Position numbers and translations under genes: made by a program. The notes under the pieces were generated by a model. It had not been told where the DNA came from. It worked only from the letters and a program-made list of their open reading frames with translations, and did not search any database. 64,000 nucleotides of DNA, from NCBI GenBank assembly GCA_000004695.1, contig CM000153.2:992001-1056000 (forward strand), in the 5' to 3' direction. Positions 11,190 to 52,131 of the stretch are shown piece after piece. The DNA comes from Dictyostelium discoideum. Lineage: Eukaryota. Position 1 is the stretch's first letter; each line of letters opens with the position of its first letter.

Positions 11190-11627
11190 TTATTTGTATT
11201 TTTGGAGATTTTTGTATAATTTGTTACCCCAACCATATTTCATTAAGAGAGAGCTGTGATCTAATTTATATAATTGAACTGGTACATCTGCTTCAGTCCA
11301 ACTATACCAATTTTTTTATTAATAAAAATAATTTATTGTTAGTATTGTTTTTATTAATTTTTTTAATGAAAAAAATAAAATAAAAAAAAAGTGAAAAAAC
11401 GAGGGGGTCGTGTGTGTATGTGAAGAGAGAAAAAAATAAAAAAAAAAGATCACATACTCTCTTGGTTTTGGAAGTTTCTTTGAAAAACAAGTATTATATT
11501 TTCTTAAAAAGCCTTCAATCTCTTTTAAGTGATTCTTTCTCTTTTTATGTGACATTCTCCAAGTATGAGTTTGTTTGATTGGTTTATGAACCAAACCACT
11601 GAATAACATTCTTGTAATTTGAAACAT
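11190..11627 (-). CDS. Two-exon gene, complement(join(11190..11301,11458..11627)), encoding a conserved-looking small basic protein of about 93 aa. Its sequence is MFQITRMLFSGLVHKPIKQTHTWRMSHKKRKNHLKEIEGFLRKYNTCFSKKLPKPRDWTEADVPVQLYKLDHSSLLMKYGWGNKLYKNLQKYK. It may be mitochondrial or ribosome-associated.
   Basis: ATG at 11625-11627. Exon 1 ends ...aga ga, followed by a GTATGT donor whose first G is at 11457. The acceptor tatAG is at 11302-11303, and the split codon ga+t = Asp. An open frame then runs to the TAA at 11190-11192. The N-terminus is basic and amphipathic. Confidence 0.5.
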
Positions 11628-12081
11628 TTTTTACTTAAATATTTATATATTCTTTGATTTATATTATATTATTAATTATTATTGTTATTGTTATTTTTGC
11701 TAAAGATATATTTTATTATATACACACAAATTGAATTGTTTAAATGGCAGTAAATTATAATCTGATAAATATTAACAACTATTTACTCAATGAAAAAAAA
11801 AAAAAAAATATGAAAAATTTTCGTCAAAATTTTTTTTTTTTTTTATTTTTTTAATTTTTTTTTTATTTTTTTATTTTTTTTTTTCTATTTGTTTGTTTAT
11901 TTTTTTTTATTTTTTTTTATGGAAACAATTAGATTTTGTTTGCCAAAAACTATTTTTTTTTTTTTCTTTTTTTTTGGTAAATTATTAATGTGTTTTATTT
12001 TTTGAAAGAGGAAAAAAAGTTTACTAGTAGTTTTTTACCTTTTTTCTCTCTTTTAAAAAGCTAAACACATTAATTATTCAC

Positions 12082-12129
<48 letters not shown>

Positions 12130-12198
12130 GTTTTAACTCTAACATATACACACACGCACACACACACGAATTTTTCAAAACAAATAAAAATAAACTAG

Positions 12199-12234
<36 letters not shown>

Positions 12235-12271
12235 ACTTACCTCTCGATCAAATAAAATCATAAAATGTAAC

Positions 12272-12305
<34 letters not shown>

Positions 12306-12687
12306 AAACTCAACCAAAAATGTAATCTCTTAAAGCACTACAAGTACAATCTACCAGCACCTTGGACATCAGTCAAAGAAATTTACACAGAACAAATCTC
12401 CAAATGAATTCACCCAGAACCTGCAACTTCTCTACTTCAAAAACATTAATAGTGAAGCCAATCGACAAATGGTCAACCCCACACAATCTTTCTCATCACA
12501 CCAAAAATGAAAGAAATCCAAGAATGGCACAACAGATTACCAGTCAAAAACTCCATCTATATTCAACAACCATAGAAGTCCTTTGCCCCACAACTGTATC
12601 ACCACATCCCTACTACTAAAAATCTCATAACTTTTTTTTAAAAATAATAAAAATAAAAATAAAAATCTATTTTTGAAAAATTGAATC

Positions 12688-12800
12688 GGCACTATTCTTT
12701 TAATTGGAAAAAAAAAAAAAAAAAAAAAAAAATGAATAGTGTAAGATCAATTTTTGGAAAAAAAAAAATGAATAGTGTCAGACCAATTTTTGGAAAAAAA
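12688..12800. repeat. Three copies of a roughly 17-bp motif, GAATAGTG(T/C)(A/C)AGA(T/C)CAA. Two are direct inside a 38-bp tandem duplication at 12722-12800, and one is inverted at 12688-12705.
   Basis: aatgaatagtgtaagatcaatttttggaaaaaaaaaa is followed by aatgaatagtgtcagaccaatttttgg. The inverted copy ttgaatcggcactattc is the reverse complement of gaatagtgccgattcaa. Confidence 0.6.
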
Positions 12801-12905
12801 AAAATTTAAAAGGAGAAGAATTTTTTTTTTTTTTTTACACTAATTGTTTTTATTGATAGAAGTTTCATGTAAATATTTTTAAATAGCTTTTAATATTTTT
12901 TTTTA

Positions 12906-13051
12906 ATGTTAGGAATCAAATTAATAAAAATGGAGTTAGTAAAATGTCAACCTGGTATATGCAATTGTTCATGTAAACCCGAGTCATTGATACCAACAAC
13001 AACCTCAACCTCAACAACAACAACTTCAACAACAACTTCAACAACAACTTC

Positions 13052-13083
<32 letters not shown>

Positions 13084-13243
13084 AAGATTTCAATACAGAA
13101 ACATAAAAATCACCTCAAGTTAAAAAGTCAGAAGAATTCGGATTTAAAAAGAAAACATACAATCAAGGTTATCCAAATAAATTTGTTTCAACGAAATGTG
13201 GTAATACTTGTGCCAAAAATATTATGAAAAAATCATTCAATTG
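12906..13243 (+). CDS. Possible small Cys-rich/Thr-rich secreted-type protein, MLGIKLIKMELVKCQPGICNCSCKPESLIPTTTSTSTT.... It is interrupted by an in-frame TAA at 13104-13106. The downstream in-frame segment KSPQVKKSEEFGFKKKTYNQGYPNKFVSTKCGNTCAKNIMKKSFN ends at 13243.
   Basis: Two consecutive ORFs sit in the same frame, separated by a single stop. There is no obvious intron signal across the stop. This could be a pseudogene or two separate small ORFs. Confidence 0.25.
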
Positions 13244-28191: not shown

Positions 28192-30856
28192 TTATGTATC
28201 AAATAAAACTTCTTCTTCATTATGATAATAATTATTATTACTATTTATAATTGAATTATTATATTGTTGAGTAGCAGATTTATGTTTATAGTTTTTATTT
28301 TTAATGATTTCATTCATTCTTTTTAAGAATCTTTGTTTATAAGGTTCAGGTCTAGTTGCAGAGATACCATCACCATCCTTTCTAAATAAATAAACCTTTA
28401 AAAATCTTTCCAATTTCTTACTAAAATCATAAAGTTGAAGTATATCAATAACACCAATATAATAGATTTCTTTTTCATCTGCTGATATAATACCATTTGA
28501 AAAATCGAATGAATTTGAAATTAATGATGAATTTGTAAAACTACCTTTTAATAAACCACCACTACCATGTCCATTATTATTATTATTAAAATTACTACCA
28601 CTACTACCACTACCAATACCATTACTATTACTATTACTATTATTATTATTTAAATTTGAACCACTTAAAATATTATTAATATTACCACCAGATTCAATTA
28701 ATTTCTTTTTAAAATCATCATTATTTGGAATTACACCAATTAGTAAAGAATAATCCATAATATTTAAAGAGGTTAAGAAAGCAGAATCATTTTTTAATTG
28801 TTGAATGATTGAATGACTAAAACCATCTGGTAAATTTAAAAATTTTCTAAAGTTTACAAAATCTAAATCTAAACCTAATCCATCACCTTTGAACAAAGGA
28901 TCATTGCCACCTCTGTTAACTTTTGAACCTTTAAGATCATACCTTTCTCTAATCTTTATACCTTGTGGAATTGTACCAAATACATTGGACATGATAGCCA
29001 AATAGATAGTATGATCATTTGGCATTGAAATCTTATGACAACCATAGAACCTCAATAGGAATGAATGGTTGTTCTTTACGAGATAGTTGTAAAAATTGTT
29101 GATTTTCTTTTTCAATAATACCGATTCTTGACGAGTGATAGTTTTAATTAAAAATTTATTATCTGGTGAGAAACACATAAAACTTCCACTTTTACCCTCT
29201 GAGAATTTCTGATTCGATAAATTCTCAAAAAACAACGATGAATCAAATGATTTCAAATAATCTGATGGTGTTATATTATTTAATGCTCTAATCTTTGCAA
29301 ATATATTTGGACAATAATCTTTAAATTTATGACTACCCATATTTGTATCTGGTGAAATATCAAAAATATCTTTAAATAATTCTTTTTCTGTATAAACTTT
29401 AAATTGTTCATTTATATTATCAAAATTATCATTACTATTATTATTATTATTATTAATATTATTATTACTATTATAATTATGATTAATTGGTGTTGATGAA
29501 GATGATGGTGATGATGATGATAATGAGTCAAATGGTAAATGTTGATGAATATCACCACCAATATGAGATTGATTATTATTATTATTTAATGAGGAGGAAT
29601 TTGATAAATTTAAATTATCATTTACAGATAATGCAATACCACGTAATGAACATGTTAAAATATTATTACGTAACATTACGGCCAATTGAGTTGGATCTTG
29701 ATTTTCATCTTGAAGTGAACGAATTAGTGGTGTGTTTTCACCATCTTTAATGAATTTCTTTGAGAATGGTAAATATTTCATAATGTTACCAAGGAAACCT
29801 CTGAGAATTGAAGGATTTGTAATCCAAATGAGTGCATTCATAAAACCTTGAATCGATACACCAATTGCATCGAAAAACATTAACACACTCGCTTGGTTGG
29901 GTGCATCATGGTGGCCTGCGATCTGCGAGATTCTGTGTGCCAATGGGCCTGCCCAACAGAGGATAAACACCAATGTGTAGGTCGACATTCTCAATAACAT
30001 TCCAGTACGATTACGATCTGACCATGAGTTATTGGTGGTTGATGATGTTAGTGATTTATTTCTAGTGGAGATTGCTGCTATGATCAATGAGGAGATCGAG
30101 ATTGAAAAGTATGCTAAAAGTGGTATGAAAAACATCAATAGCAATGGCTTGTCCTCTGCCTTGATCCAACATGTGCCATCGCCACTTGGTCCTATGACAT
30201 CGTAATTCTTGAACAGTATCGCACTTGTCACTATCGAGTACGACCATATCCAACCATGATAAAACTTGGAATAGGTTGAACTATTCTCGAATGGTCTACT
30301 CGTGCTAATGATCAAATTCAACGATATCATACCACTCCATCCAATAGATGCCAATCCAAAGAATTGCTGTATACCTGCTTGTAAATAACATGCCACCCTT
30401 TTCGTTTGAAAACTGTCACTATGTGGTAACACTGCTGTCACCAAATACTTTAAACTAAACAACACATCACAAACTGATAAAAAAAAGATCATACGTGTTG
30501 GATGTTTCTTTAAATCTTTAATAGTAATAAATGTAATAATAACAAATAATGCTCCAATACATGATAATAATGCTAAAGATCCTGATACTCTATATAATGT
30601 CTAAATATATAAAATAAATATATAAAATAAATAAATAAATAAAAAAAAAGTAGGTTAAAAAATTTTTTTTTTTTTTTTTTTTTTTTACAAATGTGAGAAT
30701 TGTTGTGTGTAGATATAAATCGGTTTGACCTATTTTTTTTTTTTTTTTTTTATTATTATTATTAAAAAAATTACTTACATGAATTTCTGGACTTTCACTT
30801 GATCCACCATGAGAAGAATCAAATGCATCTAATGAAATTCTTCCAGCAAAAGACAT
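28192..30856 (-). CDS. rpkA: Receptor phosphatidylinositol-phosphate kinase, about 828 aa, with an N-terminal 7TM GPCR-like domain fused to a C-terminal PIP5K catalytic domain (RpkA-like). Model: complement(join(28192..30600,30779..30856)).
   Basis: Exon 1 reads MSFAGRISLDAFDSSHGGSSESPEIH from ATG 30854-30856 and is followed by a GTAAGT donor. The acceptor tatttAG is at 30601-30602. Exon 2 in phase 0 starts mid-TM1, TLYRVSGSLALLSCIGALFVIITF.... Seven hydrophobic helices come next. The PIPK core follows, with GKSGSFMCFSPDNKFLIKTI and the diagnostic MDYSLLIGV motif. The symbol is inferred from this domain architecture. Confidence 0.7.
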
Positions 30857-31935: not shown

Positions 31936-35322
<3,387 letters not shown>

Positions 35323-37583: not shown

Positions 37584-39872
37584 ATGGATACATTATCATT
37601 ATTTTTAGGATCAAAGGTAATAATAATAATTAGATTATTATTATTATTATTATTATTATAATTATTATTTTAAAATTAAAACCATATAATATTAATAATA
37701 TTTCTTTTATTTTAGGGTGAAAATAAAAAATTATTTAGCCAACTTTCAAAAATGGTATTAAACTCTGCAATTGATTCAAGAATTCAATACTGTGGTAATG
37801 AACCTTCAATTTTTGAAGATGATTATTTTGAATCTGATAATTTTAAAAAATCAAGTGAATTAATTAAAGAAAATACAAAGTTAATTTGTAATTATATTAA
37901 AGATTCTACTCAATTTTCAAGTTTACGATATCAAGCTCATATGATAGAAGATCCTTTAATTCCAAGTTTTATTGGTACAATTTCAGGCCTTTATTATAAT
38001 ACTAATACATGTACTCCTCAAGTTTCTAATAAATCTTCCTTTATTGAACATGCATTTGCTAGTGACCTATGTTCAATGGTAGGTTATGATACAAGTAAAA
38101 TACCAGATTATTATAATTCAATGAAAACAGTTTCAATAAAAGAAATAATTAAAAGAGAAGTTGAAACTGTATATCCTCATGGTCATAATACTAGTGGTGG
38201 TTCAGTATCAAACATTGAAGCATGTTGGTCAAGTTATTGGGTTAAATTTATTCCAGTTGCAATTAAAAATGCATTATTAAATGAAAATGATTTAATTGAT
38301 TCCAGGGAATTAACAATTACCCTAAATGATTGTAAAACTAATAAACAATTAATTGAATGTACAAATTGGGAATTATCAAATTTAAATGGAGATTTATCAG
38401 TAAAATTACCATATCAAATAAGTTTAGAATGTAATTTACCAATTGAAAATGTTTATGAAATTATTAAAAGATATCATTCGTGTTCATTGGGTGCATATCG
38501 GTTTTTTGTGGATAATCAAATTAATCAACCAATTTATTTAATACCAGCATCAGCTCATTATTGTTTTAAAAAAGCAGTATGTTTGATTGGATTAGGTTCA
38601 ACAAATATAAAATTAATAAAAATTGAACCAAATGGTAGAATAAATATAAATGATGTGAAAATGATTATTAAAAATTGTATTGAGAATCAAATTCCAATTA
38701 TTAATATCATATCGATATTAGGTTCAACCCAAGAGTATGGTGTCGATAATATTGATGAAATAGTTTCAATTAGAAATCAAGTAAGAAGAGACTTGAATTT
38801 TAATTTTGAAATGCATGTAGATGGTGCATTCGGTGGATATTCATTATCATGTATTAGAGATAACTTTCAATTGGAAAATCCATTAGATGATCAATTATTA
38901 TTTCCTAATAATATTGAAAATGAAAATAACAATCAAAATGAAATTGATTCATTTGATCCAGAATTAATAATTAGTAGTTATGTTAAAAAACAATTACATG
39001 CTTGTAAATTTGTAGATTCAATTACATTGGATGGTCATAAATCTGGCTTTTTACCATTTTCAAATAGTACAATTTGTTATAGAAATTCAAAGTATAAAGA
39101 TATTATTACACTCTCTTCTGCTTATATAGATATCTGTAAAAAGAATATTCCAAACTGTGGCGTGTTTGGTATTGAAGGTTCTCGTCCAGGTTATTCTTCA
39201 ATCGCAGGTTATTTAACTCATTCAATAATTCGTCCTTCGAAAATTGGATATGGTAAAATTTTAAAAAGATGTATTTTTAATGCAAAATTATTTTATATAT
39301 CCTTGTTAATTAAATTCGATGGTAATAATGGTAATAATATAAAAGTGTTTACAGTTGGTAATAATCCATCAAGTGATGTTTTAAATTATTTAAAAACAGA
39401 AATAATCGATTCGAATACTGGTAAAATCAAATCATTAGATCAAATTGTATCAAATAAAACATTATTACAAATTTTATCAAATTATGGAGCAGATTTAAAC
39501 GGTGTTTGTTTTGGTTTTAATTTTATTTCACCTTCAACTGGCGAATTAAATAATGATTATCAAAAATATGTAGAACTTAATAAAATGATAATTGATAGAT
39601 TCGATTATTCAAGAGGACCTGAAGCAGATTTGATATTTGGAAATACATTTTTAAATAATAGTTATGGTAATGAATTTATTTCAAATTTCCTTGAAACAAA
39701 TGAATTAAAAATTAATATCCCTATCTATAATAAAATCAAAATTCCAATACTAAGGTCATCAACTATGTCACCTTTTATTAGTGAAACATCTGAAGGTTCA
39801 TATATTGATATTATGCTTTACCTATTATTAAAAGAAATTACAGGTTTTTTATTTTCAATTGATAAATTATAA
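37584..39872 (+). CDS. Group II PLP-dependent decarboxylase-like protein, copy 1, about 717 aa, join(37584..37616,37716..39872).
   Basis: Exon 1 is ATGGATACATTATCATTATTTTTAGGATCAAAG (MDTLSLFLGSK), followed by a GTAATA donor. The acceptor ttttAG is at 37714-37715. Exon 2 in phase 0 begins GENKKLFSQLSKMVLNS.... The fold-type I / group II motifs are HNTSGGSVSNIEA, ILGSTQEYGVDNIDEI, MHVDGAFGGY, and the PLP-lysine motif SITLDGHKSGFLPFSNS. Confidence 0.75.
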
Positions 39873-41127
39873 TTAAGATAATAAATATTAAATAAAAAAT
39901 ATAAATATAAAAATAATACATAATCAATAAAGAATCATTAGAAATCTTAAAATGATAATAAATTTAGTATCAATGATTTTTTAATTTATCAATTATTAAA
40001 TAAATAATTTGATTAGGTGGTGTTTAATTATTTTTTTTTTTTTTTTTTTTGGAATTTATTATTAATTAAAAAAAAAAGTTTTATGATCTAACCCTATAGA
40101 TTCAAAATTCATACTAAATATTATTGACACAATTTTATCACTCACACAAGAGTATAAAATAATACAAAAGTGTTTTTAAAAATCATTATTAATGATTAAT
40201 AGATACACGTCCACCCCAAAATGGGTTATAAACAGCCAGTACAGCCCAAAGTGCACAACTAAATGCTTGTACGGGCTGTATGCAGAATCGATAGGGTTAG
40301 ATAATTACACTTTTTTATCCAATATTGTATTTATTTATTTATTTATTTATTTTTTTATAAAAAAATATTTTATTTAATTTAAATTTACACATATGAACAT
40401 ATCTGGAAAGTGGGTCATTAAAATAAAAAAAACTTTTTTTTTTAATTTTAATTAAATTTAATTTAAAATTAATTAAATTTAATAAAAATGGACATCTGTT
40501 TTAAATAATAAAGTAAAAATTGGTATATCTGTTTTAAACATTTTAATATAATTATTAAAATTTAATAAAATTTTATAATTATTATTTAAATTATTAATGA
40601 AATTAATTAAATTCTAAAAATACATTGGGTTATTAATATAACAAGATATTCTAAAACCGTATTAAAATTTCAAAAAAAAATTTCTTTGTTGCGATGAATT
40701 AGTTTTTCACAAGAGATTATATACCTTACAATAAAAAAGAATATCATTTTTTAAAAAGTAGATAAATGGATAATTAAGTAGATAATGGGATAAAAAAGTA
40801 AGATAATATTTTATGGAGTTATAATTTTAAACATATATTCTTTAATACCCGAAATTTCCTGTTTATTTAAAATTTATATTTGATAATTTTTCAAAATAAA
40901 CCAATATTAATTTGAATAGTGTTAGGTTTTTAATTTGAAATTTATAAATCGTGATAAATCTCTAAACAATTACTAATTAAATTTATATTAATTCTATAAA
41001 ATAAAAAAGTAAAATAAAAAACATTAAAAAAAAAAAAAATTTAAAACTTAATTTTTAAATTCGAAAAATTAATTAGTTATTTTAAAAATTTATATTGAAG
41101 ATAATTATAAATAAAGAATATTTTGAA

Positions 41128-43392
41128 ATGGATTCTTTATCATTATTTTTAGGATCAAAGGTAATATCTTTATATTATTATTATAAATCTCAAACCATAT
41201 TAATTAATTTTTTTTTTTTTTTAAAAAAAAATTAGGGTGAAAATAAAAAATTATTTTCTGAACTTTCAAAAATGGTATCAAACTATGCAATTGATTCAAG
41301 AATTAAATATAGTGGTAATGAACCTTCAATTTTTGAAGATGATTATTTTGAATCTGATGATTTTATAAAATCAAGTGAATTAATTAAAGAAAATACAAAA
41401 TTAATTTGTAATTATATTAAAGATTCTACTCAATTTTCAAGTTTAAGATATCAAGCTCATATGGTTACTGATCCCTTAATTCCAAGTTTTATTGGTACAA
41501 TTGCTGGTCTTTTTTATAACTCTAATATATGTACTACTCAATCTTCTAATAAAACTTCCTTTATTGAATATGAATTTGCAAATGATCTTTGTTCGATGGT
41601 AGGTTATGATACAAGTAATATACCAGATTATTATAATTCAATCAAAACAGTTTCTATAAAAGAAAAAGTTCAAAGAGAATTTGAAACTGTATATCCACAT
41701 GGTCATAATACTAGTGGTGGTTCAGTATCAAACATTGAAGCATGTTGGTCAAGTTATTGGGTTAAATTTATTCCAGTTGCAATTAAAAATGCATTATTAA
41801 ATGAAAATGATTTAATTGATTCCAAAAATTTATTTATTACATTAGAAGATGGTAAAACCAATAAATTATTAATTGAATGTACAAATTGGGAATTATCAAA
41901 TTTAAATGGTGATTTATCAGTAAAATTACCATATCAAATAAGTTTAGAATGTAATTTACCAATTGAAAATGTTTATGAAATTATTAAAAGATATCATTTA
42001 TGCTCATTAGGTACATTTAAATTTTTTGTAAAAAATAAAATTAATGAACCAATTTATTTAATACCAGCATCAGCTCATTATTGTTTTAAAAAGGCAGTAT
42101 GTTTGATTGGATTAGGCTCAGATAATATAAAACTAATAAAAATTGAACCAAATGGTAGAATGAATATAAATGAAGTAAAAACGATTATTAAAAACTGTAT
42201 TGAAAATCAAATTCCAATCATTAATATCATATCGATATTAGGTTCGACTCAAGAGTATGGTGCTGATAATATCGATGAAATTGTTTCAATTAGAAATCAA
42301 GTAAGAAGAGACTTTAATTTTAATTTTGAAATGCATGTAGATGGTGCGTTCGGTGGATATTCATTATCATGTATTAGAGAGAACTTTTGGTTGAAAAATC
42401 CATTAGATTATCAATTATCATTACCTAATAATTTTGAAAATGAACAAAATAATCAAAACGAAACTGATTCATTTGATCCAGAATTAATAATTAGTAGTTT
42501 TTTAAAAAAACAATTACATGCTTGTAAGTTTGTAGATTCAATTACATTGGATGGTCATAAATCTGGCTTTTTACCATTTTCAAATAGTACAATTTGTTAT
42601 AGAAATTCAAAGTATAAAGATATTCTAACATTAGCTCCTGTTTATGTCGATGATGGAAAAAAGAATATTCCAAACTGTGGTGTGTTTGGTATTGAAGGTT
42701 CTCGTCCTGGTCATTCTTCAGTTGCAGGTTATTTAACTCATTCAATAATTCGTCCTTCGAAAAACGGATATGGTAAACTTTTAAAAAGATGTATTTTAAA
42801 TTCGAAATTATTTTATATTTCCTTGTTAATTAAATTCGATGGTAATAATGGTAATAATATAAAAGTGGTCACAGTTGGTAATAACCCATCCAGTGATGTT
42901 TTAAATTATTTAAAAACAGAAATCATCGATTCGAATACTGGTAAAATCAAATCATTAGATCAAATTGTATCAAATAAAACATTATTACAAATTTTATCAA
43001 ATTATGGAGCAGATTTAAACGGTGTTTGTTTTGGTTTTAATTTTATTTCACCTTCAACTGGTGAATTAAATAATGATTATCAAAAATATGTAGAACTTAA
43101 TAAAATGATAATTGATAGATTCGATTATTCAAGAGGACCTGAAGCAGATTTGATATTTGGAAATACATTTTTAAATAATAGTTATGGTAATGAATTTATT
43201 TCAAATTTCCTTGAAACAAATGAATTAAAAATTAACATTCAAGCCTATAATAAAATCAAAATTCCATTACTCAGGTCATCAACTATGTCACCTTTTATTA
43301 GTGAAACATCTGATGGTTCATATATTGATATAATGCTTGACCTATTATTAAAAGAAATTACAGATTTTTTATTTTCAATTGATAAATTATAA
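41128..43392 (+). CDS. Group II PLP-dependent decarboxylase-like protein, copy 2, a tandem paralogue about 90% identical to copy 1, join(41128..41160,41236..43392).
   Basis: Same two-exon structure as copy 1. Exon 1 reads MDSLSLFLGSK and is followed by a GTAATA donor. The acceptor attAG is at 41234-41235. The protein is collinear with copy 1 and has the same motifs, including DGHK. Confidence 0.75.
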
Positions 43393-43535
43393 TAAAGATA
43401 ATTTTGAATAAAAAATTAAAAAAAAAATACTTTACATACCCAAAAAAGAACATTAAATATGGATTTCTAGAAATTAATAAAAGTTTAATATCAATACTTT
43501 TTAAAATTTAATAAATTATTAGACGAGGTGGTGTT

Positions 43536-43579
<44 letters not shown>

Positions 43580-44029
43580 TTTCTAGAAAAGTCTTAAAAA
43601 TTAATTATCTTTTAGTTTGTATATTAAAAATAACGTAGAAAGATATGAGCGTTTGGCTTATTTATTGTTGTAGTTTTGTTTTTTAGTTTTTTTAATAAGG
43701 ATAGTCTCCTCTTTTTTTATTTTTTTTATTTCTCCTTATTTTTTTTTTTATAATAATAATGAAAATTTTTTTTTAAAGAAAAAAGAATAGTGTAAGGGGA
43801 GCAGAAAAGAAAATAAAAAATAATATTAAACAAAGAATAGACCAACCGACCAGCGCCACATAAAATTACTTTTCACCACTTTAATGATGGAGTTTTTATA
43901 TCCAGCCAACCTTAGAATAGTGTTTAGGTATTGAGACAATGTTAAATCTTTGGGTAGAGTGTTGTTTTGTTTGAAAGTGTATTCTATTGGGCTATTAAAA
44001 AGTTTTAAATTTTTTAATCTTGGTGTTAG

Positions 44030-45896
44030 GATCAAAGGTAATAATTTTATATTATTATTATTATAAATTTCATACCATATTAATTATAATTTTTACAAAT
44101 TAGGGTGAAAATAAAAAATTATTTTCTGGTCTTTCAAAAATGGTATTAAACTCCGTAGTTGATTCAAGAATTCATATAGGGGTAATGAACCTTCAATTTT
44201 AGAAGACGATTATTAAAGATTCTACTCAATTTTCAAGTTTTAGATATCAAGCTCATATGGTTGTTGATCCTTTAGTTCCAAGTTTATTGGTACAATTGCT
44301 GGTCTTTTTTATAATTCTAATATCTGCACTCCTCAATCTTCTAATAAATCCTCCTTTATTGAAAGTGCATTTACAAATGATCTACGTTCGATGGTAAGTT
44401 ACGATACAAGTAAAATACCAGATTATTATAATTCAATCGAAACAGTTTCAATAAATGAAACAATTAAAAGAGAATTTGAAACTGTATATCCACATGGTCA
44501 TAATACTAGTGGTGGTTCAGTATCAAATATTGAAGCATGTTGGTCAAGTTATTGGGTTAAATTTATTCCAGTTGCAATTAAAAATGCATTATTAAATGAA
44601 AATGATTTAATTGACTCGAAAAATTTATAAATTACACTAGAAGATGGTAAAACCAATAAATTATTAATTGAATGTACAAATTGGGAATTATCAAATTTAA
44701 ATGGTGATTTATCAGTAAAATTACCATATCAAATATGTTTTGAATGTAATTTACCAATTGAAAATGTTTATGAAATTATTAAAAGATATCATTTATGTTC
44801 ATTAGGTACATTTAAATTTTTTACAAATAATCAAATTAATGAACCAATATATTTAATACCAGCATCGTCTTGTCTTAAAAAGGCAGTATGTTTGATTGGA
44901 TTAGGTTCAGATAATATAAAACTAATAAAAATTGAACCAAATGGTAGAATGAATATGAATAAAGTAAAAATGATTATAAAAGATTGTATTGAAACCAAAT
45001 TCCAATAATAAATGTCATATCGATATTAGGCTCAACTCAAGAGTATGGTGTTGATAATGTTGATGAAATATTTTCAATTAGAAATCAAGTAAGAAGAGAC
45101 TTTAATTTTAATTTTGAAATGCATGTAGATGGTGCGTTCGGTGGATATTCATTATCATGTAGTAGAGATAACTTTCAATTGGAAAATCCATTAGATGATC
45201 AATTATTATTTCCTAATAATATTGAAAATGATGATAACAATCAAAATGAAATTGTATCATTTGATCCAGAATTAATAATTAGTAGTTATTTTATGCTTGT
45301 AAATTTGTAGATTCAATTACATTGGATGGTCATAAATCTGGTTATTTACCATTTTCAAATAGTACAATTTGCTACAGAAATTCAAAGTATAAAGATGTTC
45401 TTACATTAGCTCCTGTTTATGTCGATGATGGAAAAAAGAATATTCCAAACTATGGTGTGTTTGGTATTGAAGGTTCTCGTCTAGGTCATTCTTCAGTTGC
45501 AGGTTATTTAACTCATTCAATAATTCGTCCCCTTCAAAAAGTGGATATGGTAAACTTTTAAAAAGATGTATTTTAAATTCGAAATTATTTTATAATTCAC
45601 TATTAACGAAATTCGATGGTAATAATGGTAATAATATAAAAGTGTTTACAATTGGTAATAATCCATCAAGTGATGTTTTAAATTATTTAAAAACAGAAAT
45701 AATCGATTCGAATACTGGTAAAATCAAATCATTAGATCAAATCGTATCAAATAAAACATTATTATAAATTTTATCAAATTATGGAGCAGATTTAAACGGT
45801 GTTTGTTTTGGTTTTAATTTTATTTCGCCTTCTACTGGTGAATTAAATAATGATTATCAAAAATATGTAGAACTTAATAAAATGATAATTGATAGA
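44030..45896 (+). pseudogene. Decayed third tandem copy of the PLP-decarboxylase-like gene. The start codon is lost, and there are internal deletions, frameshifts and premature stops. It ends abruptly at 45896.
   Basis: It matches copies 1 and 2 at the nucleotide level across the exon-1 remnant and intron (ggatcaaag gtaataat...attagggtgaaaataaaaaattatttt). The match breaks into three short ORFs (44391-44630, 45119-45310, 45322-45561) that carry the HNTSGGSVSN, MHVDGAFGGY and DGHKSGYLPF motifs in different frames. In-frame TAA codons occur, for example ...DSKNL*. Confidence 0.8.
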
Positions 45897-46050
45897 TTAG
45901 ATGATTTATTGGAACATTTAAATGGAATTTTAATTTTATTTTAATTTTCTTAAAATTTGATATTTTTTTTTTTTTTGTGTAATTCTTGGGAATAAAACCA
46001 ATTAAAAAATTAAAATTTCAACCTGTAATAAAATCTCAGTGTAAACACTC

Positions 46051-46087
<37 letters not shown>

Positions 46088-46407
46088 CTAAAACCTTTCG
46101 GTACTTTTAAAATTTGGGAAAAAATAAAACTTGACACTTTCACAAATGAAACAACCCAATTATTTCATTTAAAAACCACCTCCCAAACAAAATAAATATT
46201 TATAACTCGCCAACAAAACTATTTTTATAATTTGATATCGCGAACAAACAAAAAAAAAAAAATTAAAAAAAAATAAAAAATAAAAAAAATAATTCTCCCA
46301 TCATGATTCGATTGCAGTGCAAACAAAACGATATTTTTTATTTTATTTTTTTTTTTATTTTATTTTATTTTTTTTTTTTTTTCAAAACAATTTTTTGCAT
46401 AAAAAAC

Positions 46408-46440
<33 letters not shown>

Positions 46441-46775
46441 CCAATCAAACAATACTAATCAAAAAATATAAAAGTTAATCTATATTCGAAAGATTTATAC
46501 ATATTAATAAATTTTAATTTTAAATTATAATAATTTTATTTTATTTTTTTTCTTCAATTATAACTATTTTATTTAATTTTCATTCTTCTCGAGATTAAAT
46601 AACCTAATAAATTTTAAAAAAAAAAAAACCAAATCATAATTATTAATCATCTTGAATTAAAATACAAATTAATAAAATTTTAAAACTTTTCAGACAATAA
46701 GAAAAACATAAATATATTTTTTTTTTAATAAAATCAATCAATCAATCAATCAAAAAAAAAAAAAAAAAAAAGAAA

Positions 46776-47531
46776 ATGGAAGGTAAAACAATTTTAGTAA
46801 CTGGCGCATCTCGTGGTATTGGTAGAGAAATCTGTTTACAATTAGCATCCTTAAAAAATGTTAATGTTGCTTTAGCAGATGTTAATGTTTGTGAAGAAAC
46901 CATTAACTTGATGAAAGAGATCAACCCATCAGTCGAAACCTTATCAATCGTTTGTGATATCTCAAAGAGTGATCAAGTTGAAGATATGGTAAACAGAGTT
47001 GTTGTAAAATTTGGCCGTTTAGATGGTGCTGTTAACAATGCTGGTATCTTGGGTCAAATGGCTAGAATTGGAGAATATGACGAGTCAATGTTCTCTAAAA
47101 TGATGGATATCAATATCAAAGGTACCTGGTTATGCATTAAATATCAAGTCAAACAAATGGAAAAACAAGGTAAAGGTGACTACTCCATCGTTAACATTTC
47201 CTCAATCGCTGGTGTATTATCATTCCCATACAACAGTGGTTACTCTGCCGTTAAACACGCTATTCTTGGTATCACTAAATCTGCTGCTGCCGAATATGGT
47301 GCCCTCAACATTAGATGTAATGCCGTATTACCAGGTGCCTCTGAAACTGCTATGCTTAGAGAATATTTACCACCAGGTGAAGCAACTGCTCAATTAGAAG
47401 GTCACGTCCCACTCAAGAGAGTATCACACCCAAGTGAAATTGCCAAACCAGTCTTATTCTTATTAAGCCCAGAATCATCCTACATTACTGGTCAATCCTT
47501 AATTGCTGATGGTGGTCTTACTATTGTTTAA
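46776..47531 (+). CDS. Short-chain dehydrogenase/reductase (classical SDR, 3-oxoacyl-ACP reductase-like), 251 aa, single exon.
   Basis: TGASRGIG Rossmann motif, NNAG, catalytic S...YSAVKH (YxxxK) and PG motif. ATG at 46776 in an aaaATGg context. The codon usage looks like that of a well-expressed gene. Confidence 0.85.
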   Translation: MEGKTILVTGASRGIGREICLQLASLKNVNVALADVNVCEETINLMKEINPSVETLSIVCDISKSDQVEDMVNRVVVKFGRLDGAVNNAGILGQMARIGEYDESMFSKMMDINIKGTWLCIKYQVKQMEKQGKGDYSIVNISSIAGVLSFPYNSGYSAVKHAILGITKSAAAEYGALNIRCNAVLPGASETAMLREYLPPGEATAQLEGHVPLKRVSHPSEIAKPVLFLLSPESSYITGQSLIADGGLTIV

Positions 47532-47784
47532 ACAATTGTTTACAAAAAACACCCCCTCCTTCCTTATCATCATTCCTAAATGATCGATCACTTTACAAAA
47601 AAAAAAAAAAAAAAAAAAAAAATTTTTTTTTTTTTTTTTTTTTTTTTTCTTTTCTTTCTTTTATTCAAATCTTTTTTTTTTCTTTTTCTTTTTAATAAAA
47701 TTATAAACAATTCAAACTTTTATTTTTTAATTTAATTTTACTTTGTTTTATTTTATTTTGTTTTACTTTTTTTTTTTTTTTTTT

Positions 47785-49314
47785 TTAATTAACATACTGG
47801 AAAAGTTTGTCAAAATGAAATGAAATTTCTATGTTATCAATTACAATATCACCTTTTATATCTTTTATTTCAAAAATAATTTTATCCATTTGGAATCCTG
47901 GGTTAATGTCATATTTTTTAGTTCCATAGTACATTTTATTTTTATTATTAATTAATGAATTGCTATTTAATATATCATTATTAAAAGAATCCATATTTAA
48001 TTTTTTAATATTAACTTTTTCTAGAAATAATTTTGTTTGATTTGTTTTTGAATATGTTGAATTTATAAATAATAAAAAAGATAATTCACTCTCTATTTCT
48101 AAACAATTATTGTTATTATTTAAATTAATTTCATTTAATTTAAAATCATTTGAACAATGAATTAATATTGAAATTTGATTAAATTGTTTTTCTCCATTAA
48201 ATGATATTGATGTTTTTAAAATTTCATTTTTATTTATTGATGAAAAAAAAGGAATTAAACCAGATACTTGATCTATTAATTCATCTTGATTATTATTATT
48301 ATTATTAGTTGTGTTGTTGTTGTTGTTGTTGTTGTTGTTATTGTAATTATTAATACAATACATTAATGACTTTGGTTGAATTTTAAAAATATATAATTCT
48401 TCATTAAAATTATTTATTATTAAATTATTTTCATTTGTTTTTTCATCTTTTTTTGCACAAATAATTTTAATTGGATATTTATAATTTAAATAATCCAATT
48501 CATTAAATCTTGAAACATTTTTTAAAGTATTGTTTATTGTTGTTTTCAATTTATAAATATTATATTCATTAGTGTTTGACAATAATTGAAAAAATGAAAA
48601 TCCAAAATTATTTTGAAATTTTATTATTTCATTACGAAATTCATTTTGTAATTGTTTTTTCTTTTTTGGGTCAATACTAAATCCCCATTCATTACCATTA
48701 TTAATATAATCAATTTTTAAACAACTATATATTGACATATTTAAAGTTGATAATTTTAAAATTTGTTTTAAAAAAGTTGAAGTTGAAAAAGATGATAATG
48801 ACGATGAAGATGATTGTATCAGTGATGAAACAGGTTTAAAATAAAAGTCACTATATTCATTTAATAAAATTATTAATTTTGAATAATAATTTCTAATATT
48901 TAATTTTAAATTTTCATTTGAAAATTTAGAAAATTCTTGAAAATTAATAGTTTTTGAATTATAATTTGTAATAATTGATTTAATAGTTTTGTTACCAACA
49001 TTTCTAATTTCCCAAATTTTTAGTAAATCACATAAATTATTTCCATTCTCTTGTAAACTATATAAATTATTATTTAAAAATATTATAATTTCATCATTTA
49101 TTTTTTCATTTATTAATTGTTCAATATCTTGAATTAAACCATAAAATATTTTATTAAAATCATTTTGGTTTAAATAATTATTATCATCAAATGAGAATAG
49201 TGTTCCCCAAAATCCACTAAATATTCCTGATTTTAATTCATTATTAAATGGATTTAATCCAATTAAATTATATAATAATTGATATGATAATTCAATTCTA
49301 TCAATATCTTCCAT
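47785..49314 (-). CDS. Hypothetical protein of 509 aa, Asn/Ile/Leu-rich, with no recognised domain.
   Basis: ATG at 49312-49314. Long uninterrupted frame. It carries a poly-N tract typical of this genome. Confidence 0.45.
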   Translation of the reverse strand: MEDIDRIELSYQLLYNLIGLNPFNNELKSGIFSGFWGTLFSFDDNNYLNQNDFNKIFYGLIQDIEQLINEKINDEIIIFLNNNLYSLQENGNNLCDLLKIWEIRNVGNKTIKSIITNYNSKTINFQEFSKFSNENLKLNIRNYYSKLIILLNEYSDFYFKPVSSLIQSSSSSLSSFSTSTFLKQILKLSTLNMSIYSCLKIDYINNGNEWGFSIDPKKKKQLQNEFRNEIIKFQNNFGFSFFQLLSNTNEYNIYKLKTTINNTLKNVSRFNELDYLNYKYPIKIICAKKDEKTNENNLIINNFNEELYIFKIQPKSLMYCINNYNNNNNNNNNNTTNNNNNNQDELIDQVSGLIPFFSSINKNEILKTSISFNGEKQFNQISILIHCSNDFKLNEINLNNNNNCLEIESELSFLLFINSTYSKTNQTKLFLEKVNIKKLNMDSFNNDILNSNSLINNKNKMYYGTKKYDINPGFQMDKIIFEIKDIKGDIVIDNIEISFHFDKLFQYVN

Positions 49315-49763
49315 TTATATATTATATATTTATTATTTTTTTTAAAATAATTATAAAATAAAATTCAATAATACAAATAAATAATAATAATAATAAAAGA
49401 AAAAATAATAAAAATAAATAAAAAAAAAAAAAAAAAAAAGGAATATTCTTGTTGGTTGTTCAAACACACAACACAAAATTAAAATAAAATAGTTAACTAT
49501 TTTTCGAAATCGAGTGGTGAAAATAAAAAAAAAAAAAAAAAGCATGTTCCTTATCTTTTATATATAAATTTTTTTTTTTCTTTTTATTTGTTTTTTTTTT
49601 TTTATTACAATACTCTATGTTTCTTCCTTTATCTTTTCTTTTTTATTTTTTTTTTTTTTTTTAAATTTTTGAGTTTTGAATATTTTCTACAATTTCTGTA
49701 TTACTTTAACTGTATTATTATTCTTTTTATATGTATTATTTTTTAAAAAATTATTTATCGAAT

Positions 49764-50491
49764 TTAATGAGATAATGGATATTTGTGGGTGATATCGTAA
49801 TATTTTTGTTTGAGTGCTGGATTTGCTTCCAAGTATTCGCTTCTAAATAATTCATAATCGTTTTCTGATTTATTATCAAAATAACGTATTGAAAATAATG
49901 AACCAATGATTGGAAGTAAACAAAGAGCTGTTAAATAGTATGGATTCATTGGGTATGGTACTGATGGCTATTTTTTCGTTATTTTTATTATTATTCCACA
50001 TGATTTGTTGAGTGAGTGAAATTGAAATGTTAATATTGTCATCATTAATACTAATTATAAAATATTATACATACTGGTGTATTTAAAAAGTAACCTCTTG
50101 GGAATTCATCTTCAACATCATCTGGATTAACATGATCGTGGTGTTCATCATGGTGTTCATCATGGTGACCATCGTTTGCGTGACTATCGTGATGATGGCC
50201 ATGTGAACAACCTGGACCATGAACATGATGTTGTTGTTGTTGTTGTTCTTCTGCTAATTCTCTAATTTGAATTGGATCAACAATAAAATTTCCGTGTTTG
50301 TATGAATAGACTGCGTCACCAAATTCTACTCTTCTTGTAATCATTTGTGTACCTGCTTCAGGTTCAGTTGGATAAGCACCACCTGCTTCACCACCACCAT
50401 GACTTGCAAATGAACGAATGGTAGTGTGTTTTACAATTGAGTTTACAACAACATTTTTTGTAGATAATAATCTAGTTGCTCTTGATAACAT
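49764..50491 (-). CDS. Mitochondrial protein with an N-terminal presequence and a COX5B-like segment, plus His-rich and C-terminal TM regions. Model: complement(join(49764..49967,50075..50491)).
   Basis: MLSRATRLLSTKNVVVN... looks like a mitochondrial presequence. ASHGGGEAGGAYPTEPEAGTQMITRRVEF resembles the N-terminus of mature cytochrome c oxidase subunit 5B. Exon 1 ends ...NTP and is followed by a GTATGT donor. The acceptor aaaatAG is at 49968-49969. Exon 2 in phase 0 reads PSVPYPMNPYYLTALCLLPIIGSLFSI...*. Confidence 0.5.
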
Positions 50492-50994
50492 CCTATAATT
50501 ACTTATTTATTTTTTTTTTTTTTTTTATAAATATGAATCTAAAACAAAATCAAAAAAAAAAAAAAAAAATTAAAAAAAAAAAAAAAATTGAAAAAAAAAA
50601 AAAATTTTGAAAAAAAAAAAAAAAAAAAAAATAAAAAAAGATATGAATGAAAATAGTTAAAAACAAATAATTATTTCGTTTTTCTTATTTCCCAAAAAAA
50701 GAAAAAAAGTAAAAAATAAAAAAATAAAATAAAAAATAAAAAAAAGAAAAAAATAAGAAAAAGCAAGTTATTGGACCTACCTTGGTTTTCAAGTTTTTTT
50801 TCTTTTTTTTTTCTTTTCATAATTTTTTTTTTTATTAATTTTAAAAATTACAAGAATTTTTTAAAATAAAAAAACAATTTTACCCTTTTTTTTTTTTTTA
50901 TAAACTAAAATTTTTTTTTTTTTTGTTAAATTAAAATGAATATAAACAAATAATAATAAAAAATAAATAAACAAACAAATAAATAAATATCAAA

Positions 50995-52131
50995 ATGTAT
51001 ACACAACAAAAACAAACACAAACACAAACACAAAATGTTAACAATAATCAATCACGAATAATACCATCTTCTTTTTCTTTTCAATCATCACAATCAAATA
51101 ATAAAGTATATAAACCAATACCATTGAAAGAGATGGAATTATTTTTATTCACTATACCAAGTAAAGAAAAGACTTTAATGTTAACAGATTTAGACGAAAA
51201 TACGACAAAGAAGGATATAGAGATAGCATTTTCAAGGTTTGGTTTAATCTATGATATTGTTGTTTACACAAATAAAAACTCTAAGCGAATATTAGGGTTA
51301 ATTAAATATTGTCTTGAAAACAGTGCTATATCAGCACTGAATCATCATCATACCATTGAAAAGATAAAAATCAATGGGAGAGAATGTACATCTGTAGTAT
51401 TATCAAGTTTTAAAAGTGACAAACCCTTTGAAATACCATTTCCAAAATCATTACAAATTATCAATCATCTTTTAGGTTTTAATCAATGGTCTACTGAAAT
51501 AGATAGATTCGAACATGAATACACTCGAGAGATTTTACTTGAAACTGATTTAAATGGTGTACCACTACAAACACCAATTAGAAAATATGAATCGAAATGG
51601 TATGCTTTGGTTTATTCAACATTCAAACAAATTGACGTTAGAATTAGTACAGTTTCACATGGTGTTGGTGAAGACTCTTGTAAGATTGAGGCAACTAGAA
51701 ATGCTAAAAAGGTTGCAGTTTCAAATTCAAGAAAATTAGCATTCACAAAAATTGGTATACTAATCATTAAGGATCAATCACCAATACCCTGTATATTAGA
51801 TCAAGACTCAATAGTAGATAGTAGTTCAAATAATTTTAACTCTGATTGTAATCAATATATGTTTGATAATAATTTAATTCAAAATGATGAAAATGAACAA
51901 CAACAAGAAGAAGAAGAAGAACAACAACAACAAGAAGAATTTGATGAAAATGAATTTCAAAATAATGATATAGATTTCGATTTTGATACCAATGATAGTA
52001 ACCCAACTGATTTAGATGTTGATGTTGATGTTGACATTGATACTGATGTTGATTTTAGTTCTGATATTAAAATTGATGATTCTAATGTTGATGCAGGTGT
52101 TGATATTGATGTTGATATTTCAATACCTTGA
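50995..52131 (+). CDS. RAD52 motif-containing protein 1 (RDM1)-like protein of 378 aa, with an RRM-like domain plus a RAD52-like motif and an acidic C-terminal repeat (DVDVDVDID).
   Basis: The RRM-like segment reads LFLFTIPSKEKTLMLTDLDENTTKKDIEIAFSRFGLIYDIVVY. The RAD52-like segment reads INHLLGFNQWSTEI...KWYALVYSTFKQIDVRISTVSHGVGEDSCKIEATRNAKKVAVSNSRKLAF. Single exon. Confidence 0.55.
   Translation: MYTQQKQTQTQTQNVNNNQSRIIPSSFSFQSSQSNNKVYKPIPLKEMELFLFTIPSKEKTLMLTDLDENTTKKDIEIAFSRFGLIYDIVVYTNKNSKRILGLIKYCLENSAISALNHHHTIEKIKINGRECTSVVLSSFKSDKPFEIPFPKSLQIINHLLGFNQWSTEIDRFEHEYTREILLETDLNGVPLQTPIRKYESKWYALVYSTFKQIDVRISTVSHGVGEDSCKIEATRNAKKVAVSNSRKLAFTKIGILIIKDQSPIPCILDQDSIVDSSSNNFNSDCNQYMFDNNLIQNDENEQQQEEEEEQQQQEEFDENEFQNNDIDFDFDTNDSNPTDLDVDVDVDIDTDVDFSSDIKIDDSNVDAGVDIDVDISIP

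Follow-up and report, generated by a model that had tools for sequence, protein, structure and literature searches.

The closest described relatives of the proteins treated here are long-form aromatic amino-acid decarboxylases, which depend on pyridoxal phosphate (PLP). In PcncAAAD from Psilocybe cubensis (PDB ID: 6EBN), the catalytic domain spans Met1–Asp717 and carries the catalytic residue Tyr471. It is followed by a C-terminal domain (residues 718–1013), a Ca2+-binding double β-barrel of about 300 residues, and the enzyme is inactive without it (PMC13062060). The Enterococcus-type tyrosine decarboxylases (TyrDCs; PDB IDs: 7CWX and 5HSI) have the same long form, adding a helical region at the N terminus and a further domain at the C terminus. 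Here, we describe a tandem array of related genes in a 64,000-nucleotide (nt) stretch of the Dictyostelium discoideum genome (GCA_000004695.1, contig CM000153.2, positions 992,001 to 1,056,000 of the forward strand). This whole stretch is called the window, and positions are counted from its first letter. An original prediction, made from the sequence alone, had placed three tandem paralogues of PLP decarboxylases at positions 37584–45896, two of them intact (copies 1 and 2) and one decaying (copy 3), and the tandem paralogues are indeed there. We consider it likely that the locus is an old array of long-form group II decarboxylases acting on an aromatic substrate, in which copy 3 died recently.

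Gene Models and Protein Family

Both intact genes have the 33-nt first exon that had been predicted, as shown by the gene models and the database match. Each encodes 729 amino acids, not the approximately 717 claimed at first. The spliced products are 100% identical to database proteins of D. discoideum AX4, namely XP_638984.1/EAL65627.1/Q54QN9 for copy 1 and XP_638985.1/EAL65628.1/Q54QN8 for copy 2; the window is therefore AX4 sequence. Copies 1 and 2 are already in the annotation with the same exon structure as in the original prediction, and the database name of both proteins is "pyridoxal phosphate-dependent decarboxylase family protein". Literature searches with Q54QN9/Q54QN8, with this annotation phrase, and with Dictyostelium plus tyrosine decarboxylase or trace amines returned no paper naming these genes.

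The two genes lie 3,544 bp apart, start to start, and share 89.6% amino-acid and 92.7% nucleotide identity, close to the separation of about 3.5 kb and the identity of roughly 90% estimated beforehand. The duplicated unit is made of the gene, approximately 180 bp of 3′ flank and approximately 30 bp 5′ of the ATG; the remaining spacer sequence is unique. In blastn, 37712–40050 aligned with 41232–43561 at 91.4% identity, extending some 180 bp beyond the stop codon. Alignments within the array show 90–92% identity across 1.7–2.3 kb, which is well above chance expectation. The base composition of the window is approximately 17–32% GC, and the encoded proteins are rich in poly-Asn.

The Pfam model PF00282 (Pyridoxal_deC) matched copy 1 with 53.0 bits (E 3e-14) and copy 2 with 58.9 bits (E 4.8e-16), above its gathering cut-off of 27 bits. 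On these matches, both proteins are assigned to the group II (fold-type I) PLP decarboxylases, in line with the first reading of the sequence, and the motifs HNTSGGSVSN, MHVDGAFGGY, and DGHKSGFLPF are found as quoted there. The top NCBIfam model was TIGR03811 (Enterococcus-type tyrosine decarboxylase) with 186.6 bits, while the lower matches MfnA (Tyr/Asp), PanP (Asp), and diaminobutyrate decarboxylase scored 34–77 bits. PF21391, the TyrDC C-terminal domain, gave a weak score of 16–17 bits versus a cut-off of 27.2. When solved structures were searched with HMMER, the best sequence match was 6EBN (E 5e-72), with residues 5–701 of the query aligned to residues 25–690 of the chain. The runners-up were the tyrosine decarboxylases of L. 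brevis (5HSI) and E. faecalis (7CWX), both with E ~1e-41. The canonical enzymes MfnA, GAD, SPL, and CSAD were matched with E 1e-8 or weaker.

The structure was modeled with AlphaFold2 (mean predicted local distance difference test, pLDDT, 75; predicted template-modeling score, pTM, 0.76) and compared by Foldseek. Confidence is low in the Asn-rich insert at residues 399–421 and in residues 478–504, which hold the residue aligned to the catalytic-loop tyrosine of PcncAAAD. The top match was again 6EBN, with a template-modeling (TM) score of 0.76 by query. The TyrDCs came second (0.63 by query and 0.76 by target), and the short canonical group II enzymes reached approximately 0.41. As predicted, the proteins are neither GAD nor canonical AADC. 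The same prediction had described the N- and C-terminal regions as unusually long, divergent extensions, and in this it was wrong. The alignment of residues 5–701 to 6EBN, the superposition of the whole model, and bacterial homologues of approximately 750 amino acids that align end to end together indicate that such regions are standard in a known long-form subfamily.

Catalytic Residues and Proposed Chemistry

Residues K443, H295, D382, H170, N179, and Y471 of 6EBN correspond to K453, H292, D380, H168, N177, and Y481 in the Dictyostelium proteins. Both copies and every dictyostelid homologue have these six residues, and among 129 family members K453, D380, and H292 vary little or not at all. 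Both copies have the Schiff-base lysine in a D-x-H-K motif, the aspartate for the pyridine nitrogen, and the PLP-stacking histidine. Both are also under purifying selection. The pairwise ratio of nonsynonymous to synonymous divergence (dN/dS) is 0.32 at a dS of 0.17, and the branch values, calculated from path-averaged counts with bootstrap, are 0.33 for copy 1 and 0.26 for copy 2. Judged from their sequences, the products of copies 1 and 2 are most likely active enzymes.

Homology suggests that the enzymes are homodimeric PLP-dependent α-decarboxylases. Lys453 would carry PLP as a Schiff base, with His292 stacking on the cofactor ring and Asp380 pairing with the pyridine nitrogen. Tyr481, located on a mobile loop, would protonate Cα after the loss of CO2, and a primary amine would be released. 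The substrate is most probably an aromatic amino acid, a guess weighted by the nearest characterized relatives; Tyr, Phe, or Trp would be converted into tyramine, phenethylamine, or tryptamine, respectively. There is no Ca-binding C-terminal domain, so the proteins should work like the bacterial forms that do not have this domain. The dimeric state, the catalytic activity, and the aromatic substrate are the parts that we infer. A specialized role is plausible.

The Third Copy

The start codon of copy 3 is gone. Just the final 12 nt of exon 1 remain, and similarity to copies 1 and 2 begins only at TTAGGATCAAAG (44024). Compared with these copies, the coding sequence has deletions of 1, 71, 1, 6, 1, and 13 nt and an insertion of 2 nt; five of the seven indels shift the frame, and in-frame TAA stops occur at approximately 44628 and 45765. 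The 6-nt deletion takes out the PLP-stacking His292, the family-invariant pair H292/Y293 being deleted or altered. The longest surviving open reading frame (ORF) has 79 amino acids. Similarity stops at approximately 45898–45906, near the truncation point of 45896 given in the original prediction, and the last 88 or so codons are absent. Relative to strain FIR, this truncation is a deletion of approximately 540 bp: positions 45908–47595 of AX4 align with 11508–13190 of the FIR array sequence (L001), where the unit runs on to 11236. The intron has two small deletions. Because the intron is retained, copy 3 is a duplicated, non-processed pseudogene. Alignment to copies 1 and 2 therefore upholds the account of a decaying family member with a lost start codon, deletions, and premature stops.

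Copy 3 is 92.1% identical in nucleotides to copy 2 and 90.1% identical to copy 1. It is a mosaic, as it contains a run of copy-1-type sites though it is nearer to copy 2. The dN/dS of its branch is 0.43 (95% confidence interval 0.27–0.71), which indicates selective constraint during most of the time since copy 3 separated, and hence a recent death.

The sequence of approximately 460 bp found where copy 3 should have its promoter and the greater part of exon 1 (Table 1) has no match in the window, in the array of strain FIR (L001), or in the array of D. firmibasis (L003). A minus-strand ORF of 69 amino acids (43826–44035) is found in this region. The window contains zero tRNA genes and thus gives no support for a tRNA-targeted (TRE-type) retroelement as the source.

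Age and Turnover of the Array

An exhaustive search found 1,476 homologues. The closest outside the discoideum group are two proteins of D. purpureum (42% and 41% identity) and one of Cavenderia fasciculata (38%), and the family is therefore old in Dictyostelia. The first matches came from the discoideum group and bacteria only; recent horizontal transfer is ruled out by the D. purpureum and Cavenderia homologues. In D. firmibasis, two tandem copies are followed by the same short-chain dehydrogenase/reductase (SDR) gene that follows the array in AX4. D. dimigraforme has two genes with adjacent numbers on a single contig, and the arrays of other strains under the label D. discoideum or D. cf. 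discoideum comprise three or four units. In a bootstrapped neighbor-joining (NJ) tree, paralogues group by genome, with support of 100% for D. firmibasis, 100% for D. dimigraforme, and 81% for AX4 copies 2 and 3, and the units of FIR and FIW are positionally orthologous (95–100%). On these sequence comparisons, a long-standing array undergoing concerted evolution or birth-and-death fits better than a single recent expansion. Of the proposed "recent local expansion", the tandem copies stand and the word recent does not, given the dS of 0.17, the tandem genes of D. firmibasis and D. dimigraforme, and the clustering by genome.

Gene conversion has probably occurred between copies 1 and 2 over codons 551–660, where dS is 0.079 and dN is 0.004; the other segments have a dS of 0.11–0.23. 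Residues 551–650 contain one amino-acid difference between the two copies. We propose that the array pre-dates the D. discoideum species group and would evolve through gene conversion, unequal exchange, and gene death. The last AX4 unit would have died recently, with the loss of its 5′ end, the large 3′ deletion, and several frameshifts.

Copy 3 is the final AX4 unit ahead of the SDR gene, and it matches the final unit of FIR and FIW in both its 5′ part and its 3′ flank. In FIW, this unit is an intact gene of 729 amino acids (P0029). In FIR, it has a single 1-nt frameshift in an A-run, which is either real or an assembly error. As the last unit is dead in AX4 and intact or near-intact elsewhere, its loss is polymorphic; the intact units do not turn it into an artefact. 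The original prediction had held that an intact copy 3 in independent assemblies would speak against decay; such a copy occurs in other strains only, and the AX4 copy is not intact.

A further partial decarboxylase unit, comprising an N-terminal fragment, lies between the first two full copies of the FIR array (L001 3411–3896). The FIR gene caller joined this fragment to the next copy, producing an 850-amino-acid model (P0001), and in FIW two units were merged into a model of 1,327 amino acids (P0027). The automatic annotation of both arrays is unreliable. The single-copy flank at 45908–52000, compared with L001 11508–17512 (GCA_054859385.1, labeled D. discoideum), is approximately 94% identical to AX4, coding sequence included. 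This seems a high divergence for conspecific strains, and cryptic species may be involved. In the spacer between copies 1 and 2, positions 40065–40323 contain inverted repeats with 39-nt arms that are 82% complementary (core GATCTAACCCTATAG / CGATAGGGTTAGAT). The repeats flank a stretch of 181 nt, and FIR lacks any equivalent of this spacer segment. From its sequence, it may be a small insertion bounded by terminal inverted repeats.

Genomic Neighborhood

The SDR gene is the sole immediate neighbor conserved across species; D. firmibasis and two further D. discoideum strains also have it next to the array. A gene with RRM/Rad52-like features also lies downstream, and the upstream neighbors are PIG-X, a fusion of a seven-transmembrane (7TM) receptor with PIP5K, and NRDE-2. 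By their predicted domains, the array neighbors are unrelated housekeeping or signaling genes. The 7TM-PIP5K fusion is presumably a G-protein-coupled receptor–PIP kinase of the kind described in Dictyostelium as RpkA.

Table 1. Features of the decarboxylase array and its surroundings (window coordinates; aa, amino acids).
Feature	Position	Strand	Details
Copy 1 exon 1	37584..37616	+	33 nt, MDTLSLFLGSK; ATG at 37584, GT at 37617
Copy 1 intron	37617-37715	+	GT...AG; AG at 37714-37715, in frame
Copy 1 exon 2	37716..39872	+	Ends at TAA stop; with exon 1, 729 aa
Candidate gene-conversion tract, copies 1/2	39333..39662	+	Codons 551-660; copy 2 counterpart 42853-43182
Duplicated 3′ flank of copy 1	39873..40050	+	Counterpart 43393-43561; co-duplicated with the gene
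Copy 2 exon 1	41128..41160	+	33 nt, MDSLSLFLGSK
Copy 2 intron	41161-41235	+	GT...AG
Copy 2 exon 2	41236..43392	+	With exon 1, 729 aa
Unmatched sequence	43562..44023		Replaces copy 3 promoter and most of its exon 1
Copy 3 pseudogene	44024..45906	+	Last 12 nt of exon 1, intron, frameshifted and 3′-truncated exon 2
SDR gene	46776-47531	+	251 aa, PF13561, E 6e-59; immediately downstream of array
7TM-PIP5K fusion ORF	28192-30492	-	Dicty_CAR/Frizzled-like receptor domain and PIP5K lipid-kinase domain
NRDE-2 ORF	31936-35322	-	1,128 aa, NRDE-2 domain E 8.5e-71, HAT repeats; upstream of array

Discussion

Several points weigh against the reading of the locus as an old array of aromatic amino-acid decarboxylases. 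It is built on sequence and model comparison, and for function on homology, and identity to any characterized enzyme is just 20–30% or so. The equivalog test of TIGR03811 failed by a wide gap (186.6 bits versus a cut-off of 905.3 bits); the proteins are homologous to the tyrosine decarboxylases and are not equivalogs, nor orthologues of the characterized enzyme. They are also without the domain that the activity of PcncAAAD requires (PMC13062060), and the ligands of its Ca site A are not kept, with Asp at the positions of Q629 and S632 and a gap opposite E637/E638. The long discoideum-group branch is compatible with a change of substrate. As to age, repeated independent duplication could also yield the clustering by genome. 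A non-aromatic substrate is possible, if doubtful: the enzymes might act on Asp, Glu, cysteine sulfinate, diaminobutyrate, Lys, Orn, or a modified amino acid such as kynurenine, and feed a Dictyostelium-specific metabolite rather than an arylalkylamine. The low identity to the characterized aromatic decarboxylases and the long branch would agree with this, as would the conserved SDR neighbor and the presence of MfnA, PanP, and diaminobutyrate decarboxylase among the lower NCBIfam matches. Those non-aromatic families, however, score 34–77 bits versus 187, and the characterized long-form members PcncAAAD, E. faecalis TyrDC, and L. brevis TyrDC all act on aromatic amino acids (PMC13062060). It is very improbable that the proteins are aldehyde synthases, which combine decarboxylation with oxidative deamination, or PLP-fold proteins that have lost catalysis and serve another role. 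A single loop substitution can turn group II enzymes into aldehyde synthases, as in the plant and insect enzymes, and the second aromatic residue after the Schiff-base lysine is F or Y depending on the strain (DGHKSGFLPF vs DGHKSGYLPY). Against this, Y481, the equivalent of Tyr471 in PcncAAAD, is kept by the two copies and by every dictyostelid homologue, the PLP-binding residues are all intact, and the genes are under purifying selection.

The origin of the family allows another account, in which dictyostelids acquired it horizontally from bacteria and the import was then amplified into the array. Relatives with an organism name are Rhodobacterales, a cyanobacterium, Fibrobacterota, Sericytochromatia, a Spirochaetales metagenome-assembled genome (MAG), and the agaric Dendrothele. 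The top named match outside Dictyostelia is the Spirochaetales MAG; further named homologues are bacterial (Rhodobacterales, cyanobacteria, and Fibrobacterota), have approximately 750 amino acids and no C-terminal domain, and no other amoebozoan homologue is found among the named matches. We still regard transfer as unlikely. The two genes of D. purpureum and the one of Cavenderia fasciculata make any transfer older than the dictyostelid radiation, the genes have a spliceosomal intron and a host-like GC content of 24%, and basidiomycete fungi also have the family. In the midpoint-rooted NJ tree of the family, where most matches are without an organism name, the dictyostelids form one long-branched clade that the tree is unable to assign to a bacterial group, and the length of this branch prevents placing its sister group. 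6EBN falls in a separate clade of proteins of approximately 720–1080 amino acids, mostly near 1000, with one named member, the fungus Dendrothele. As for the pseudogene, it is hardly credible that copy 3 is alive, with lesions due to assembly or sequencing errors or with a truncated product that is still expressed. Its 79-residue ORF (44391–44630) contains HNTSGGSVSN, a 63-residue ORF (45119–45310) contains MHVDGAFGGY, and the lone frameshift of FIR falls in an A-run and is possibly an error. The AX4 copy nevertheless has seven coding indels, including those of 71 and 13 nt, and two stops; its start codon and promoter are lost, the PLP-stacking His is deleted, approximately 540 bp are missing at the 3′ end, and no frame longer than 79 amino acids is left.

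The old array of long-form decarboxylases, as we prefer to read it, is real but ordinary gene-family turnover, and its genes are annotated members of a known, structurally characterized subfamily. The practical value is modest. What had been misread as extensions is corrected to a known domain architecture, and two uncharacterized D. discoideum genes gain nearest characterized relatives, which are aromatic amino-acid decarboxylases. One hypothesis that follows is that tyramine, tryptamine, or phenethylamine is the product of Q54QN9 and Q54QN8. As an example of polymorphic gene death alongside concerted evolution in a model organism's tandem array, the locus is small and clean. Its importance would grow only if the enzymes feed an amine signal in social amoebae. 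A speculative extension, which we rate as a long shot, is that discoideum-group amoebae use these decarboxylases to make one or more aromatic monoamines as intercellular or inter-species signals, with the gain, loss, and homogenization of array units between strains reflecting ecological selection on amine output. If true, this would make a eukaryotic monoamine system outside animals and fungi, based on the non-canonical decarboxylase lineage. There might be a tie to the "alternative" decarboxylases of monoamine signaling in sponges (bioRxiv 10.64898/2026.02.14.704838).

Relation to Characterized Decarboxylases

The canonical group II enzymes (AADC/DDC, GAD, HDC, CSAD, and SPL) have the PF00282 core fold and the PLP chemistry in common with the Dictyostelium proteins. 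They match just the central 100–300 residues or so, with E 1e-8 to 1e-3 and a TM score of about 0.41, and at approximately 450–520 amino acids they are without the long-form N- and C-terminal regions. The Enterococcus-type TyrDCs (TIGR03811) are closer in form. They have approximately 620 amino acids versus 729 in Dictyostelium, and identity is approximately 19–20%. The Dictyostelium proteins have additional inserts, such as the Asn-rich loop at residues 399–421.

The bacterial proteins of approximately 750 amino acids, such as those from Shimia isoporae, Yoonia, Geitlerinema, and the Spirochaetales MAG, are of equal length and have no C-terminal appendage. They share 27–34% identity over 96–100% of the query. 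They differ in being prokaryotic and intron-less and in their unrelated genomic context, and none is characterized. In Shimia isoporae (L002 8001–12325), the homologue overlaps a downstream S9-family peptidase gene by 4 nt, which suggests an operon; genes with FIST and guanylate-cyclase domains come after the peptidase.

PcncAAAD is the top match both by sequence and by fold. It is far first in HMMER, yet identity over the Foldseek structural alignment is 22–23%, and it belongs to a separate clade of the tree. Of the two, only PcncAAAD has the Ca2+-binding double β-barrel: the Dictyostelium proteins end at residue 729, and their alignment to 6EBN stops at chain residue 690–709 or so. The catalytic domain is matched over its full length, and the Schiff-base lysine, the stacking histidine, the aspartate, and the catalytic-loop tyrosine (Tyr471) of PcncAAAD are shared with the Dictyostelium proteins.

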